DNA of 21,487 bases from a virus (Duplodnaviria; Heunggongvirae; Uroviricota; Caudoviricetes), in IMG/VR virus record IMGVR_UViG_2703718857_000003, positions 1 to 21,487 of that record. One strand, written 5' to 3'. A program made the translations under genes and the position numbers. The notes under the pieces are model-generated. The model had not been told where the DNA came from. It searched no databases and worked only from the letters and a program-made list of their open reading frames with translations. This document shows, piece by piece, positions 8,246 through 17,880 of this stretch (the first letter of the stretch is position 1; each line of letters begins with the position of its first letter).

Positions 8246-8418
8246 TGTCAGGAGTCCTGAATAGTGATTAGAGGAGTCACATGTCGGCATCAGTTTCCCG
8301 ACGATGCGCATCCTCCGCCATCAGTCCCGGATGGCTTATCACTGACACAACAGCACCTTAGCGAATCGCGGGGCGCGACTCAGTAGCCTTGCCGTGTATT
8401 CATCACGGCGAGGTATTC
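8246..8418. promoter_or_regulatory. Divergent late-promoter region between O and P (expected Ogr-dependent)
   Basis: Position only: the intergenic space between divergent O and P start codons is where P2 carries its O- and P-operon late promoters. I could not identify the activator dyad with confidence. Confidence 0.3.
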
Positions 8419-9656
8419 ATGACCATCACCACAGACACCACTCTTTTACACGACCCGCGTCGTCAGGCGGCGCTGCTGTACTGGCAGGGGTTTTCCGTGC
8501 CGCAGATTGCCGCCATGTTGCAGATGAAACGCCCGACAGTGCAGAGCTGGAAACAGCGCGACGGCTGGGACAGCGTTGCCCCCATCAGCCGTGTCGAAAT
8601 GAGTCTGGAAGCGCGGCTGACCCAGCTCATCATCAAACCACAGAAAACCGGCGGTGACTTCAAGGAAATTGACCTGCTGGGACGCCAGATTGAACGACTG
8701 GCACGGGTCAACCGCTACAGCCAGACCGGCAACGAGGCAGACCTTAATCCGAACGTCGCTACCCGTTCTGGTCGGGTGAACTGTTCAACCGGGGACGCGC
8801 CAGCGCCGCCGAACGCGTGGAAATCGACGTCAGTCATAACGCACTTGCCGGAGGTCTTCTCTGTGCGGACGGCCAGTGGCGGCAGATTGTCACCATTGAG
8901 GACGCCCTGAAAGGTGGCTGCACGCTGTTCGACATTGAGCAGCTTAAACGCGAAAACAGCGCCGACGATTTTAAAAACCTGTTCATGTGTGAATTTGTTG
9001 ACGACAAGGCGTCGGTGTTCCCGTTCGAGGAGCTGCAACGCTGCATGGTCGACACGCTGGAAGAATGGGAAGACTATGCGCCGTTTGCCGCCAATCCGTT
9101 CGGCTCACGTCCGGTATGGATTGGTTACGACCCGTCACACCGTGGCGACAGTGCCGGATGCGTGGTGCTGGCACCGCCGGTGGTGGCCGGTGGCAAATTC
9201 AGAATACTTGAGCGTCACCAGTGGAAAGGCATGGACTTTGCCACCCAGGCTGAATCCATCCGCGAACTCACCGAAAAATACAACGTCGAATACATCGGTA
9301 TTGATGCCACCGGCCTCGGTGTCGGCGTGTTCCAGCTCGTGCGCTCGTTCTATCCCGCCGCGCGCGATATCCGCTACACGCCGGAAATGAAAACCGCAAT
9401 GGTGCTCAAGGCAAAAGACGTTATTCGCCGTGGCTGTCTGGAATATGACGTCAGCGCCACCGACATCACCAGCTCGTTTATGGCTATCCGCAAGACCATG
9501 ACCAGCAGCGGACGCAGCGCCACCTATGAGGCCAGCCGCAGCGAGGAAGCCAGCCACGCCGACCTCGCCTGGGCGACCATGCACGCCCTGTTAAATGAGC
9601 CACTCACCGCGGGTATCAGCACTCCGCTGACATCCACCATTCTGGAGTTTTACTGA
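8419..9656 (+). pseudogene. P: Large terminase (ATPase) subunit P, internally deleted and frameshifted
   Basis: The N-terminal part (MTITTDTTLLHDPRRQAALLYWQGF...NPNVA) is in one frame and the C-terminal RNaseH-like nuclease part (YPFWSGELF...VWIGYDPSH...IGIDATGLG...HADLAWA) is in another; the frames overlap between 8658 and 8910. The total span is ~412 codons versus ~590 for P2 gpP, and no Walker A/B ATPase segment is present. Confidence 0.7.
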
Positions 9657-10779: not shown

Positions 10780-11469
10780 TCAATCTTTAACTTCAATATA
10801 TGAAGAAGAAAACCATATAGATTTTTTCCCATTTATGTATTTAGAAACAGGCGAGCCATCTTCGTTCATTGCCTCAGCACTAAATGTTACATAATACATT
10901 CCTTTTTCTTTTGTCGAAACAAGATAGTTCAAGCGTCTTTCGGCAGAGATAGGAACGGATATATCATATAAAGGTATATTTTTAGCTTTTCCTTGCGAGC
11001 TACTTTCTTCATTAAGAACAGCCAACTCCTCATAATAATTTGGATAAAAAACTTCCGTAGCGACTTGCTTTGCACCGGCCGATAAAACACGACTAACAGC
11101 AAGGGACTTGTTATTAAGCTTCACATAAATTCGCTCATTACTGTTATTCCTAATAGTTACAATAGGCTTTATATAAAACACATCATCGATTTTAACAACA
11201 TTAACGTCAACATTAAAAAATGTCGATTCTGTATTTCTAATTCTATTTCTTAACTCTATAAGATCAGCTTCTGCCTTATCCCTTTGGTGCAAAACATCAA
11301 AAGTATATCCTCCCCACACAAGTGTCAAAACAGCGCACAATGACATCACGACGTTATTAAACTGATCGTGTGTTCTGTAAATATCTTTGAATTTTAAAAT
11401 TAATAATAGACATGCTATGAATAGCATGCCTATTATCAGCCAGTGTTCTTTTACAAATTCAAAGTTCAT
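10780..11469 (-). CDS. Uncharacterised membrane protein with two N-terminal TM helices and a beta-rich soluble C-terminal domain (cargo)
   Basis: 229-aa ORF; hydrophobic segments WLIIGMLFIACLLLIL and VVMSLCAVLTLVWGGYTF, then a Ser/Asn/Lys/Val/Tyr-rich soluble domain. AT-rich codon usage; start 2 nt after the stop of the upstream ORF. No family recognised by eye. Confidence 0.6.
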   Translation of the reverse strand: MNFEFVKEHWLIIGMLFIACLLLILKFKDIYRTHDQFNNVVMSLCAVLTLVWGGYTFDVLHQRDKAEADLIELRNRIRNTESTFFNVDVNVVKIDDVFYIKPIVTIRNNSNERIYVKLNNKSLAVSRVLSAGAKQVATEVFYPNYYEELAVLNEESSSQGKAKNIPLYDISVPISAERRLNYLVSTKEKGMYYVTFSAEAMNEDGSPVSKYINGKKSIWFSSSYIEVKD

Positions 11470-11471
11470 AG

Positions 11472-12554
11472 TTAGTCACTCGCATGCCTCGCATCACCAT
11501 CTTCAGGGAAATTGATCCCCTGTCCGATCTCACGGTTCGTTGGACGAGCAGAAACAAAGCCTCTATTTTGTCTTTTTAAACGCAACTCTAGAACTTGAGA
11601 AACTCTATCAAAGTTTAATCCATCCATTGCAACCTCTTTTTTCCCTTCAATATGAGATCGAAGTTCCTCACTTATACGATTATCAACCGTTGAAGCGAAG
11701 GCTACATCATGATTAAAAATGGCCCCCATAATTAACATAAACGCAATTCCGGCCTTTCTATTATTTGTTTTAAATTGTAGCCAAACATCCCCCGGAGACA
11801 TCAACATTTGTTGAGCAGTCAAGGATAACTCTCCATTATTAGAAAGTCTTTCCATCTCAAACTGAACAACTTCGTTTGTATACTCGCCATCAAACTCTTC
11901 GCCAATTAATAGCGCAAGTACCTGCACTCTATCGACCAGCTCAGCCAGCTGCTTAAGAGTATGATGCCGAATGGCTTCTGCTTGCTCGACTCTTAAGCTA
12001 GTACAGAAAATATTATCCGTTATAAAGAATGACATTAACCAATGCAGTACTTCTTCTGACTTCCCGCCCAAAGAGAATACGGTCTGGTATGCAGTAAACG
12101 ATTTCTGAAGAGCTAATGGAATCTCTCGTCTGCGAACTGGCTCTCCCCATGTGACTCTACGTCTTACATGAAACCCTTCATTATTACCTAAACATTCACG
12201 CTCAAAATACGCGGAAGATGCAATAACTCCAGGAACAACCATATCACCTGACAAAGTGAAAACAACATCACCGACCTGCATATCTATGAGGAAATTTTCA
12301 ATTTGGGTATGAATATTTCTTGAACCAATAGTATCTAACCCATCAACCTTTTGATTAATATTTTCATGGTTAATTTCATCATTAAAGTCAATTTGATCTG
12401 GACTTAACCTATCCAAGTGAGCAGTAGCAACCATATTGCGTTCAAGGAAGTCTGCAAAATATCTATACTTAATCCCAGGTCTAACGACCCAACACTTTAC
12501 ATTTAAATCAACATGTTGTACTGAAATAGCTCTTTGTGATGAAGTTCCAAGCAT
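11472..12554 (-). CDS. Uncharacterised soluble protein, first gene of the two-gene cargo operon
   Basis: Long AT-rich ORF; 361 aa from the first ATG at 12554, or 366 aa from the TTG at 12572. No Walker, HNH, DxD-nucleotidyltransferase or other motif recognised by eye. Confidence 0.55.
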   Translation of the reverse strand: MLGTSSQRAISVQHVDLNVKCWVVRPGIKYRYFADFLERNMVATAHLDRLSPDQIDFNDEINHENINQKVDGLDTIGSRNIHTQIENFLIDMQVGDVVFTLSGDMVVPGVIASSAYFERECLGNNEGFHVRRRVTWGEPVRRREIPLALQKSFTAYQTVFSLGGKSEEVLHWLMSFFITDNIFCTSLRVEQAEAIRHHTLKQLAELVDRVQVLALLIGEEFDGEYTNEVVQFEMERLSNNGELSLTAQQMLMSPGDVWLQFKTNNRKAGIAFMLIMGAIFNHDVAFASTVDNRISEELRSHIEGKKEVAMDGLNFDRVSQVLELRLKRQNRGFVSARPTNREIGQGINFPEDGDARHASD

Positions 12555-12778
12555 AGCTGATCCATAATTCAAAAAATTTTACGCATTTTACATATTTTTA
12601 TTTAAGACTCTAGAGCGTTAGGAATGATGAATCGCTTCAACAGATTATTTTTTGTGCAGATAGTGTGCTTAAACCAACTCATCGTAACGAAAGCACTCGC
12701 CTGAATCGTAAAGATAACATCTCATGACTCGATTCATAGGCTAATAGTATTATGCAATGGTCGTTAATGGAGCGCGCA

Positions 12779-14293: not shown

Positions 14294-15283
14294 TTAATTT
14301 ACATTCTTGTAAAAAAGCATATCGACAATCGTATTTCCGTATTTTCTCTTTAGCTTATCGAGATAACTCTTATCAATTGTGTTTATATGATTCAAAAGAC
14401 CAGAAACTGTATTAACGCCCTTTTCCAAGATCTCACTATCATTCAATCCGCTAGTTTTAACCTTAGGATCTTTTATTATAGAATCTATAAATTTATCTTT
14501 ATCCGTTACATAAAAATGAATCAAATGCTCAAGCTTTCTTTTTATTTTAATATCAACAGAGACTATCTGAGACGGTAAAATAACCATCCCCAGCAGCTTA
14601 ATCTTACTGCCTTTTTTAATCAATTTAGTTTTTGCTGAGTTTAGTTTGAAATGTCCCTTCCCAAACTCACCCAGCAGGTCACTTACTACAGAATGAATAT
14701 TCTCAAAGCCCTCATCATTTTCAGAGGAAATAATAATATCATCTGAATAGCGTGTGAATATATATTCATGGTTAATACAATATTGCTGCATCTCAACATC
14801 AAAGTCATATAAACATGCATTGCTGAAAGCTGGTGATGTCGGGAACCCTACAGGCAACGAATTATCGATAATAATATAATCTAAAATTTTATCCAAGTGT
14901 ATATTTAAATCGGAAATGGGAACGTTCGATAAGTTATCAACTAAAACTGATCGTGCATATTCACGAGTTATCGATGGGAAAAAGCTTTTAATATCAGTAT
15001 TGAAGAATATCTTACTACAGGCGTGAAGTTTTACTGCATCATAAGTGCTGCTTCCTTTTCTATACGAAAACACAACATCCTTATTTACTTTCAAGTATGA
15101 AAGAACAAATTCATTTATGAATTTGTGATACTCTTTTAGTTTAGAAGTGGGCTCAGCAATTAACCTTTCATCAAAGGTTATAAATTTAGTTTGTTGAAAT
15201 GGTTCAAACGAAAGAAAGTTTTGAAAGGAATCTTTTTCGAAGAATGCAATATTGAAGGCTTTTTCGAGACTAAGGGGTTTCAT
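14294..15283 (-). CDS. Retron-type reverse transcriptase
   Basis: 329 aa with RT motifs in order: NTDIKSFFPSI (domain 2), LPVGFPTSPAFSNA (domain 4), FTRYSDDIIIS (YxDD catalytic box). Motif order and spacing parallel retron Ec86 RT as I recall it (NIDLEDFFPSL / LPQGAPSSPKLANL / YTRYADDLTLS); size is typical of retron RTs. Confidence 0.8.
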   Translation of the reverse strand: MKPLSLEKAFNIAFFEKDSFQNFLSFEPFQQTKFITFDERLIAEPTSKLKEYHKFINEFVLSYLKVNKDVVFSYRKGSSTYDAVKLHACSKIFFNTDIKSFFPSITREYARSVLVDNLSNVPISDLNIHLDKILDYIIIDNSLPVGFPTSPAFSNACLYDFDVEMQQYCINHEYIFTRYSDDIIISSENDEGFENIHSVVSDLLGEFGKGHFKLNSAKTKLIKKGSKIKLLGMVILPSQIVSVDIKIKRKLEHLIHFYVTDKDKFIDSIIKDPKVKTSGLNDSEILEKGVNTVSGLLNHINTIDKSYLDKLKRKYGNTIVDMLFYKNVN

Positions 15284-15289
15284 CGTTGG

Positions 15290-15440
15290 CTGAGCTTTTG
15301 TTTTTTGAGTTGAATGGATTCTAAGATGAATGCTTTAACTCTCAGTCTTTCCTCACCCCAGACACCCTCCCTTCGCAGGCTTTACTTCTTGTACATACCT
15401 TCTCTCGAAAGAGAAGGCAGTACAAGAGCAACACTATATA
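15290..15440 (-). ncRNA. Candidate retron msr/msd non-coding RNA region (boundaries uncertain)
   Basis: Non-coding stretch immediately upstream of the RT containing a long interrupted hairpin at 15387-15427 (8-bp stem TCTTGTAC/GTACAAGA, internal loop, 7-bp stem CCTTCTC/GAGAAGG, loop TCGAAA), as expected for an msd stem. I could not identify a1/a2 flanking repeats by eye. Confidence 0.3.
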
Positions 15441-15456
15441 AAGGCCTGTAGAGGCC
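15441..15456 (-). terminator. Possible intrinsic terminator downstream of A (minus strand)
   Basis: 5-bp GC stem GGCCT/AGGCC with loop GTAG, followed on the minus strand by TTTATATA. The stem is short, and it could instead be part of the ncRNA. Confidence 0.25.
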
Positions 15457-15609
15457 AACATTTATGACTGGAGATGCTCCTAGTCGTTGGCATAAAAACA
15501 CTTTAAACCAGATTATGAGCATTTACAACATTTCAAGCCGTCGAACGCAGCCCCAATCAGAAAAGAACTCACACGGCCATCATAACATCATGATTTAGAT
15601 GGATATAAA

Positions 15610-17880
15610 TCACCCTTCATGCTTCACCCACTCGTCCGCTATCGGGTATACAAATCTTTTTTCGCCATAAACCACTATTCCGCCACGAGCCAGCGCCTGA
15701 AGTTCCCACCGCTGCGGCGTGATACCCTGCTGCGCCAGTTCGAAGCGGATGCGCGGAATCTGAGCCCTCTCGGCTTTTGTCATTCGCCCTGATGGTGCTA
15801 TCTGATGCGATTTTAATGGCTCATCGCTTCTTTGCTGTCGATTTTGCTGCGGCGCGCCGTGTTTTAATGCACTCCTGAGCACCGTCACAACTTCGGGGTC
15901 ATCCCATGCAATAACCCCATCATCGACAAGATTTAGCACCGCTGCGGCATGCTCAGACGGCGTAGGTGTCATAACTGGATCGCCACCGTCGGCAAGCTTT
16001 CCACAGTTATTGACAGGACTCCGAGGCGCGGCGATGCCGCTTTTTAAAGTCAAAGGCTCAACGACCGGAACTTTCGGCACAATGCGCCAGTCCGTCGTTC
16101 TGGTGATATGAATATGACGCGCGCCGAGATGCGGCGCGTAAATGCCGACCACTCTCTCGACTTCTTCCTCGTACTCGTTAACGTCATCCGACGGGCTACG
16201 GGCGACCCTGACAGTCTGACAATCGCGCGGGACATTTGCCCCGCCCTGCGCGCTGATATACAACGCAAAATCACCACTGTCTGCAGCGGCGCGTGCAGCC
16301 TCGACGCGCTCGTCAAACTCATCAGCAATGCTGACGCCGCGAGGCAATTTGCGTAGTTCACGGTAAGCCCCCATTGTCGGCAGACCAACCGTTTTAAATT
16401 GCGGAATGCGCCACGTTGACGCCCATGCGGTAACAGCCGCAGCAGTATCTTTCAGCGGCCTGCCGGTATCGTTATCGAGCTGACCATCCAGTGCATAGCC
16501 ATCGATGTTTTTTGAGATGTATTTCGCGATATACCCCGCAGCACCGCCCCGGTTAAGATGTTTTGCCTGAAAACGGTTTCGCGCGGCTCCTCTTTCGTCT
16601 CCATCCTCTTTGAGCGCGTAGCGACGCATGATTTCAATAATCTGGTTACGCTGGCGTGGATTACAAAAAAGCATCATATGCCAGTGCGGCGTTCCGTCGT
16701 GGTGTGGCTCGACGACACGCAAACCGTAGACCTGTAAATCATTATCCTTGAATGCCGTGCGCATCAGGCTCCAGATATGGCAGAGATAACGCTGCGCATC
16801 CTTTGGATTAAATGCCTCATCGTTCCAGCCGTGATTTAGCTGGACGGTTTTACTTTCGCCTTTTCTGACCTGACGTGTCGGGTGATACTTTGACGGCGCG
16901 GTCAGCGTGATAAACATCCCCACATCACCCTCTGCGGCGGCGTAACGCTCAATACCGGCGATGGTGTTCATCAGCTCCATCCGGCGAATTTCTGGATTAG
17001 AAATACTGCCCATCACCTTACTGATAAGGTCGATGCGCTCGCCGGTTTCCTTGTTTTCAAGGTCACACGATTTAAGAAATTCCAGATTTGCCTGGCGGCG
17101 CGCACGCACATCACGAATGGCATGTTTACTGGCATAAGGAGAACGGTCTTTATTGACCTCCCCGACAGCAATCAGTAACGCCTCATGCCAGCGCATACGC
17201 TGGCCTTTAAGCTGATGAGTCCACCACTCATCGTTAAACAGGCGGGCAATGGCAGAATATGCCTGCCTCGTGGTCATCTGCCCTTTACGGTATTTTTTCC
17301 AGTAAAGCGGGGAAATATTGAAAGCACGTGCAGCGCCAGCAACATGACCATAGAGGTGAGCCTGCGCCTCATCCGTAAACAGCGATTCTTTTTCGCCATG
17401 TGCATCAACCCAGGCATCGCAGAGTTCCTCATACATCATGAAAAGCTGCGATGAGATACGGGCAGCAAACTTTTTCAGCTCCTTGTCATTCATCCCCGGC
17501 AGGCGCGCATACTGGTCGCGCTCTGCCAGAAACAGCAACGACGCGTCGGTGTTCATTTCATGGCGCTGATTCACACGCTCAATGCGCGGCCATAAACGAC
17601 GCTGAAAAGTGGATGTGAGGAAATAAAACCCGTGCACCGGGCTTTTATTGCGCCGGATGTAGTCATAGCGTGAAGTAAACAGCGAGCGCAAAAAGTAAGG
17701 CAGGCGGTTAATCGTGGATAAAACACCTTGCACCTGACGCATCTCGTCACGTGTAAGGGGTCTTTCGCGCCCGACGGCCTCGCGTGGCGCGTTCCATGCA
17801 TAAGCACCGATAAACGCCTTACCGGTGCCTGCGGCAAATGCTGACGGAGGGACAAAACGCCCGGAGGCTTTAACGGCCAT
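15610..17880 (-). CDS. A: Replication initiation protein A (rolling-circle initiator, P2 gpA-like)
   Basis: 756 aa from the ATG at 17880 (MAVKASGRFVPPSAFAAGTGK...), close to the ~761 aa of P2 gpA; synteny B-small ORFs-A. The maximal ORF extends to 17922. Confidence 0.8.
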   Translation of the reverse strand: MAVKASGRFVPPSAFAAGTGKAFIGAYAWNAPREAVGRERPLTRDEMRQVQGVLSTINRLPYFLRSLFTSRYDYIRRNKSPVHGFYFLTSTFQRRLWPRIERVNQRHEMNTDASLLFLAERDQYARLPGMNDKELKKFAARISSQLFMMYEELCDAWVDAHGEKESLFTDEAQAHLYGHVAGAARAFNISPLYWKKYRKGQMTTRQAYSAIARLFNDEWWTHQLKGQRMRWHEALLIAVGEVNKDRSPYASKHAIRDVRARRQANLEFLKSCDLENKETGERIDLISKVMGSISNPEIRRMELMNTIAGIERYAAAEGDVGMFITLTAPSKYHPTRQVRKGESKTVQLNHGWNDEAFNPKDAQRYLCHIWSLMRTAFKDNDLQVYGLRVVEPHHDGTPHWHMMLFCNPRQRNQIIEIMRRYALKEDGDERGAARNRFQAKHLNRGGAAGYIAKYISKNIDGYALDGQLDNDTGRPLKDTAAAVTAWASTWRIPQFKTVGLPTMGAYRELRKLPRGVSIADEFDERVEAARAAADSGDFALYISAQGGANVPRDCQTVRVARSPSDDVNEYEEEVERVVGIYAPHLGARHIHITRTTDWRIVPKVPVVEPLTLKSGIAAPRSPVNNCGKLADGGDPVMTPTPSEHAAAVLNLVDDGVIAWDDPEVVTVLRSALKHGAPQQNRQQRSDEPLKSHQIAPSGRMTKAERAQIPRIRFELAQQGITPQRWELQALARGGIVVYGEKRFVYPIADEWVKHEG

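Follow-up and report, generated by a model that had tools for sequence, protein, structure and literature searches.

A conserved noncoding RNA gene beside the reverse transcriptase of a predicted type I-B1 retron in a P2-like E. coli prophage

The retron locus and its prophage setting

The DNA analyzed here (the window, 21,487 nucleotides) is a P2-like prophage with integrase, gene A, portal, terminase, gpO, gpN, gpM, and gpD genes. Between gene A and the portal gene of this E. coli prophage lie a reverse transcriptase (RT) gene and a gene for an OLD-like ATPase-TOPRIM effector (Table 1). The gpA-portal hotspot of P2 carries defense genes, retrons included (Rousset et al. 2022, PMC9122126), and the 2.8-kb retron at this position is found in 10 of 5,426 complete E. 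coli genomes. Elsewhere in the prophage, the terminase large-subunit gene (8389–9656, plus strand) seems split and shortened into two open reading frames in different frames (8389–8910 and 8817–9656), which together span only ~1.3 kb from the gpO start to the portal start and show a partial N-terminal domain match. This may reflect a defective prophage or a frameshift in the sequence.

After RT_I-B, the PADLOC profiles that best match the 329-aa RT are RT_II-A and RT_I-A, and the best relatives of the RT among solved structures are type I-A and II-A retron RTs. Retron-Eco8 (type I-B2), which likewise combines an RT, a noncoding RNA, and an OLD-family ATPase-TOPRIM nuclease and operates by abortive infection, is a remote match (E 4.4e-8), with a distant RT from another clade. 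The effector translation contains EDEVL and DGD motifs; compared with solved structures, it gave no sequence match except to generic ABC ATPases. The I-B1 subtype was defined by a motif IV of the form EDxxL and a motif V of the form DxD, an RT of clade 1, and its own “IB1” RNA family, with no described member (Mestre 2020, PMC7736814). Our locus encodes a clade-1 retron-type RT and, adjacent to it, an ABC-ATPase and TOPRIM protein with EDxxL and DxD motifs, and a structured noncoding RNA lies beside the RT gene. On this gene content, we assign the RT and the OLD-like ATPase-TOPRIM protein to a predicted type I-B1 retron.

Table 1. Features of the retron locus in window coordinates
Feature	Coordinates	Strand	Basis or remark
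OLD-like ATPase-TOPRIM effector, 450 aa	12940–14292	minus	PADLOC ATPase-Toprim_I-B 3.3e-179, full length
Retron reverse transcriptase, 329 aa	14294–15283	minus	PADLOC RT_I-B 6.5e-110 over residues 3–328; Pfam RVT_1
Variable spacer and RT leader	15284–15375	minus	Unstructured; conserved only at RT identity of at least 79%
Noncoding RNA module, I-B1	15376–15493	minus	Predicted start A15493 (conserved CAT); conserved 3' edge just past GUAAAGCCUG
a2-like segment UAAAGCCUG	15376–15384	minus	Preceded by G15385 (“opposing G” position); G-UAAAG motif as in type I-A a2
P3, candidate msd	15382–15431	minus	Base UUGC 15428–15431 / GUAA 15382–15385 plus hairpin 15387–15427; UUCG loop 15406–15409
a1-like segment CAGGCCUUUA	15439–15448	minus	Pairs with 15376–15384 in the window MFE fold
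Terminator-like hairpin GGCCU-CUAC-AGGCC (GGCCUCUACAGGCC and UUUAUAUAGU)	15443–15456	minus	Terminator scan
CUCUA box, single-stranded, nearly invariant	15449–15453	minus	C 87/88, U 65/88, C 87/88, U 88/88, A 83/88
P1 3' strand GUUGGC	15454–15459	minus	Partner of 15486–15491
6-nt bulge AUAAAU	15460–15465	minus	Precedes P1 3' strand
Near-invariant 20-nt stem-loop GACUAGGAG-CAU-CUCCAGUC	15466–15485	minus	First base G15485 invariant, 88/88
P1 5' strand GCCAAC	15486–15491	minus	Pairs with 15454–15459; every pair changes on both sides
-10 element TAAAGT	15500–15505	minus	17-nt spacer to -35; TAnAnT conserved
-35 element TTGTAA	15523–15528	minus	TTG conserved in 70 non-redundant relatives
P2-type replication gene A, 770 aa	15610–17922	minus	Pfam Phage_GPA 3.3e-123

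A conserved RNA module with its own promoter

The first-pass annotation had described a 326-bp noncoding gap between gene A and the RT, with a long hairpin inside it, and both are present. The gap is bounded by the stop codon of gpA (15610) and the start codon of the RT (15283), and the only mechanical open reading frames within it, of at most 46 aa, all overlap the covarying helices described below. The hairpin at 15387–15427 consists of two perfect 8-bp blocks (15387–15394 with 15420–15427, and 15398–15405 with 15410–15417) separated by an internal loop and capped by a UUCG tetraloop, for a total of 16 pairs; it forms the body of P3, the long hairpin of a conserved RNA. Folding of the minus strand, which had been proposed as a check, shows that the whole gap folds better than its shuffles (z -3.44), with the signal concentrated in a 118-nt module at 15376–15493 (-48.2 kcal/mol vs -25.7 +/- 3.1 for shuffles; z -7.29; equaled by 0 of 200 shuffles). 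Positions 15284–15375 fold no better than chance (z -0.37).

We compared 80 loci with related RT genes, one genome per species, and 10 contigs whose RTs are 56–88% identical to that of the window. Common to most upstream regions is a 20-nt motif, GACUAGGAGyAkCUCCAGUC (window 15485–15466), with a 6-nt segment on one side complementary to that on the other; beyond these come CUCUA, a linker containing UUUA, and a long hairpin whose base is of the UUAC/GUAA type. When 37 sequences are aligned with plain MAFFT, each of the six base pairs of the flanking helix (P1) varies in both strands, and the stem-loop is 100% paired; RNAalifold, applied to 21 full-length relatives, returns exactly three helices, namely P1, the stem-loop, and P3. 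A covariance model (R1) built from the latter alignment finds one match beside 88 of 91 related RT genes, and its match in the window covers 15376–15491 (117.6 bits, E 2.4e-20). In the resulting 88-sequence alignment, which is fitted to the model and favors structure, 96.8% of cells are paired, compared with 29–46% when partners are slid, and both strands vary in 23 of 27 pairs. The base helix of P3 itself covaries, appearing as UUAC/GUAA, UUUC/GAAA, or CUAC/GUAG. The module shares with canonical msr-msd RNAs the combination of short conserved hairpin(s) with one long, sequence-variable stem-loop. Curated models do not recognize it: a covariance search with Rfam, its retron msr models included, gave no match in the window at the gathering threshold, and only chance-level matches (E of at least 0.38) in 15100–15800.

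Overall, the gap holds a ~118-nt noncoding RNA gene of the type I-B1 retron, with its boundaries, helices, and promoter. The earlier proposal that the retron’s noncoding RNA lies in the gap holds as to location, the RNA gene being directly upstream of the RT on the same strand; as to extent, the conserved RNA takes up just ~118 of the 326 nt, plus ~35 nt of promoter. We also considered that the hairpin might be a palindrome that arose by chance, or might serve P2 regulation or replication and have nothing to do with the retron. Beyond its location in a phage genome nothing speaks for this, and we give it scarcely any credence: the helices covary, and the same module accompanies I-B1 RT genes in chromosomal, non-P2 contexts in gamma- and betaproteobacteria.

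To locate the promoter, we aligned 70 non-redundant loci on the first base of P1. The profile shows TTG at -37 to -35, TAnAnT at -14 to -9, and CAT at -3 to -1. The best -35/-10 score is 8.36 vs 5.91 in shuffled sequences, and a score of at least 9/12 is reached in 44% of loci vs 1.7%. The window’s own -35/-10 match is weak, at 8/12 and under the scan threshold. From the conserved promoter, the RNA is predicted to start at ~A15493, so that only ~2 nt would precede P1. At the other end, relatives with 57–79% RT identity lose conservation a few bases past GUAA, and the spacer from the long hairpin to the RT start codon ranges from 6 to ~270 nt in other loci.

Retron noncoding RNAs are normally described as co-directional with the RT, as is the module in the window. 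Seventeen of the 88 relatives instead carry it on the opposite strand (L023, L026, L031, L036, L041, L047, L048, L053, L057, L059, L061, L063, L065, L066, L068, L069, and L070). These opposite-strand modules sit just upstream of the RT with back-to-back promoters, at ~2720–2940 on the minus strand in most loci and at 1073–1175 in L026. One of these loci, L041, encodes both RT_I-B and ATPase-Toprim_I-B and is a bona fide I-B system. Since its orientation to the RT varies, we view the module as a self-contained unit of ~115–120 nt served by its own promoter. As an annotation tool, the covariance model locates the RNA at almost every related locus, opposite-strand ones included.

Some minor features concern the spacer and the RT start. 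A purine-rich run, GGGAGGGUGUCUGGGGUGAGG (15351–15371, minus strand), lies between the noncoding RNA and the RT and is kept only where RT identity is at least 79%. The matching spacer of several Pseudomonas loci is pyrimidine-rich, with CUCCAG repeats (L017), and that of a Kosakonia cowanii P2-like prophage (L084, ~2380–2420) carries ~4 copies of the tandem repeat CAAATAGG. The 8-nt sequence GCCAACGA (15484–15491), comprising the P1 5' strand, the invariant G, and an A, is directly repeated at the RT start (15283–15290, minus strand; GCCAACGAUG). The P1 3' strand could also pair with the RT translation start region; this is seen in close relatives only and may be due to chance.

Flanks of the long hairpin and candidate priming sites

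The GC hairpin at 15443–15456 had been read as a possible terminator of the gene A transcript. The hairpin is present and is flagged by a terminator scan as a 5-bp stem with 4 GC pairs followed by the U-rich UUUAUAUAGU, fitting the scan consensus at the one site found vs 0.3 expected. Its position argues against that role: it lies ~155 nt past the A stop codon, downstream of the conserved noncoding RNA promoter and within the conserved RNA. Moreover, it is built from the last bases of the P1 3' strand, the CUCUA box, and the a1-like segment, and takes bases from the covarying P1; it is unused in the MFE fold of the module; and its stem is weakened (CAAGCC) or absent in relatives. We consider an intrinsic terminator of gene A at this site very improbable, and regard the hairpin instead as a putative alternative fold of the RNA, in competition with P1 and the a1-like segment. 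We also inspected possible pairing of the CUCUA box with the 5' strand of the stem-loop (UAGGAG) and rejected it, as we saw no covariation when either varies.

The a1/a2 repeats that define canonical retron RNAs had not been identified in the first-pass annotation. In the window, a helix between CAGGC(C)UUUA (15448–15439) and UAAAGCCUG (15384–15376) flanks P3, with G15385 ahead of its 3' arm. Enteric relatives retain this helix with some compensatory changes, such as CAGG/CCUG vs CAAG/CUUU and UUUA/UAAA vs UUGA/UAAGG. An a1/a2-like helix around P3 is therefore present in the window and its enteric relatives, but no a1/a2 pair extends across the family. In a family-wide comparison of outer helices around P3, cognate linker and downstream segments pair no better than non-cognate ones (mean z 0.07, p 0.67). 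The window’s flanking helix, placed on fixed columns, is 56% paired, a value reached by 50 of 500 shuffles. In other subgroups, closing helices lie elsewhere, at varying distances, or are absent.

The 5' end of the RNA pairs with an internal segment (P1), unlike canonical terminal a1/a2 repeats and unlike a1 of type I-A RNAs, which pairs with the RNA 3' end. A search downstream of P3 for the complement of the RNA 5' end or P1 5' strand gave no signal (mean z 0.13) and no consistent position. Two further placements were rejected. An a1 upstream of P1 overlapping CUGGUUUA (15505–15512) would coincide with the -10 region, shows no covariation with the 3' element in relatives, and conflicts with a promoter that leaves 2 nt before P1. 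An a2 within the RT coding region (GAAAAAGCCUUC), as annotated for retron #314 of a published census, shows on inspection no covariation with the a1-like segment in enteric relatives.

No candidate slot beside P3 holds a conserved priming G in the 88 sequences, and the first-pass annotation had likewise found none. The slot after UUUA is G in 16 of 88 and U in 49 of 88 (U15438 in the window). An automated search for a G flanking UUAC gave no usable priming mark: the slot before UUAC is G in 30 of 88 (G15432 in the window), and the slot after it is G in 27 of 88, usually pairable with the opposite strand (U15427 in the window), so that neither is diagnostic. The opposing G15385 is conserved in 79 of 88. 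The sole invariant G beside a helix end is G15485, directly after the P1 5' strand (88 of 88). As judged from these alignments, the I-B1 family appears to depart from the canonical layout of a1/a2 repeats and branching G.

Candidate template, relatives, and defense context

Among the clade-1 retrons with tabulated noncoding RNAs and sequenced RT-DNAs, type I-A RNAs are arranged as a1 (CUCUUUA), G, SL1, SL2, CUCUAAyUUAUUGA, long stem, G, and UAAAGAG (PMC10849725). Like these RNAs, the I-B1 RNA has a conserved hairpin, a CUCUAA-type box, an AU-rich tail, a long stem, and G-UAAAG, in the order CCAGUC...CUCUAC...UUUAU...long stem...G-UAAAG. Its RT is of the same clade as those of type I-A and II-A1 retrons (Ec78/Eco7, Ec83/Eco4, and census terminals 6–290), and its ATPase belongs to the same protein cluster family. 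Because of the homologous layout of type I-A RNAs, we take the stem-loop to be the probable RT recognition element and P3 the probable template. The differences are that the I-B1 RNA has no 5' a1-G-SL1, that its a1-like segment comes after the 5' hairpin and ahead of the long stem, the window having a U in the branching slot, and that the I-B1 effector carries a fused TOPRIM domain, whereas type I-A systems encode a separate HNH protein. Retron-Kva1, described with a “non-canonical ncRNA”, was set aside as a relative; it is of type II-A1 and not relevant here.

Two I-B1 retrons are included in the census of Khan et al. (PMC10849725), #308 from Pseudomonas hussainii and #314 from Burkholderia pseudomallei, and both were scored 0 by PAGE. 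Retron #308 resembles our locus in its clade-1 RT, its ATPase-TOPRIM protein with EDxxL and DxD motifs, and its order of P1, an identical 20-nt stem-loop, CUCUAG, UUUAU, and a hairpin between UUUUAC and GUAAAA; unlike #308, the window copy resides in an E. coli P2-like prophage. The window RT is ~45% identical to the RT of Atopomonas (Pseudomonas) hussainii, P0033, which we tentatively equate with #308 from the organism name. On the #308 sequence, the window RNA is assigned as a predicted member of the “IB1” family of Mestre. The RT-DNA listed for #308 covers the module from end to end, P1 to GUAAAAAA, and begins precisely at an A6 run; the census protocol combined poly-A tailing with an anchored oligo-dT primer. 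We did not accept this RT-DNA as proof of the template: the gel signal is 0, P1 is covered as well, and the start at the A6 run suggests to us possible mispriming.

The RNA-sense strand of P3 folds more stably than the complementary strand, by a mean of 4.05 kcal/mol (58 vs 11 of 71 non-redundant sequences, p 3e-10). G-U pairs make up 9.2% of its pairs vs 3.8% in ten canonical msd regions with sequenced RT-DNA, a small sample with little strand bias. Over the 71 sequences, we count 121 G-U pairs in the sense strand vs 22 in the antisense strand (A4 alignment columns 88–179, window 15382–15431). A DNA copy of P3 would have A-C mismatches at the positions of these G-U pairs.

Our preferred explanation, to which we assign a probability of roughly 0.65, is that a promoter drives a ~118-nt I-B1 RNA on whose 5' hairpin the RT docks, that the RT copies P3, and that the resulting complex restrains the ATPase-TOPRIM protein. 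The RNA, predicted to start at ~A15493, has two domains: a 5' hairpin (P1 around the stem-loop) with the CUCUA box, and then P3. The RT would recognize the invariant 5' hairpin and CUCUA box, prime near the base of P3, and copy P3 into an msDNA hairpin of roughly 50–70 nt. The complex of RT, RNA, and msDNA would keep the nuclease inactive, and its disturbance by a phage would trigger abortive infection. The RT binding site, template identity, priming site, msDNA, and defense role of the I-B1 RNA in this scheme are inferred by homology with the sister type I-A and II-A1 RNAs. The earlier suggestion that the hairpin forms an msDNA stem is in keeping with its homology to the long stem of related RNAs. 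Both that suggestion and our preferred explanation have against them the lack of a conserved G at the expected priming slots (U15438 in the window), the lack of a family-wide a1/a2 pair, the bias of P3 toward the RNA strand with its elevated G-U content, and the two census scores of 0 by PAGE; the lack of a matching Rfam family further counts against the preferred explanation.

The RNA-strand bias of P3, together with the invariance of G15485, which borders a covarying terminal helix, keeps another assignment alive, in which P1 is the true a1/a2 stem and G15485 the branching G. Only 15460–15484 would then be copied, into an msDNA of ~20–25 nt, and P3 would stay RNA as a scaffold for the RT or effector. 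P1 covaries strongly and occupies the extreme 5' terminus of the transcript, the place of a1 in canonical retrons; after its 5' strand comes the only invariant helix-end G, and a G is often found opposite, just ahead of the P1 3' strand. P3, for its part, behaves like a selected RNA helix, and two I-B1 retrons gave no msDNA band in the normal size range. We nonetheless judge this assignment distinctly unlikely. So short an msDNA would be unprecedented, recognition by the RT explains the invariance of the stem-loop equally well, the stem-loop shape and CUCUA box correspond to SL2 of type I-A RNAs, an element that is left uncopied, and the related type I-A ATPase is described as binding the long msDNA stem.

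The same features of P3, namely its RNA-strand bias and its lack of a flanking conserved priming G or a1/a2, would also fit a structured RNA that is never made into branched msDNA and instead serves as an RNA partner of the RT and effector, or that is primed in some other mode. The scores of 0 by PAGE for #308 and #314 agree with this, as does the sole listed RT-DNA, that of #308, if its span over the whole module from the A6 run reflects oligo-dT mispriming as we suspect. Against it, the RT has a full retron-type catalytic domain and groups in clade 1 alongside msDNA-making type I-A and II-A1 retrons. Moreover, the RNA cloned for #314 lacked the 5' hairpin, which makes its failure uninformative, and a foreign host without the effector may also fail to yield a product. 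On balance, we hold an RNA that never becomes branched msDNA to be quite improbable.

A broader proposition spans these alternatives: I-B1 RNAs may not be canonical msr-msd RNAs at all, with priming at the P1/stem-loop G to give an msDNA of ~20–25 nt, or with no branched msDNA. P3 would then remain RNA and scaffold the OLD-like nuclease, and the module would be an autonomous unit with its own promoter, placed on either strand. We regard this as unlikely, and put it forward tentatively.

On current sequence evidence, the window element adds a new P2-borne E. coli member to the predicted and experimentally uncharacterized I-B1 family. The subtype has no experimentally described member, and the only two that were tried yielded no visible msDNA. 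With its promoter, RNA start, three covarying helices, and candidate priming sites mapped, the E. coli copy offers a convenient model for asking whether I-B1 retrons prime and template like other retrons, and how the OLD-like nuclease is restrained.

Like P2 Old and other gpA-portal cargo (PMC9122126), the retron occupies this genomic slot, and its effector is of the same ATPase-TOPRIM class as Old; unlike Old, the window nuclease comes together with an RT and a structured RNA. Two more minus-strand open reading frames, at 10780–12572, lie between the retron effector and the portal gene. The product of one (229 aa) has a hydrophobic N-terminus and no family match, and that of the other (366 aa) weakly matches the PADLOC candidate PDC-S02 (2.5e-12); together, these genes may represent a second defense cargo in the same hotspot.
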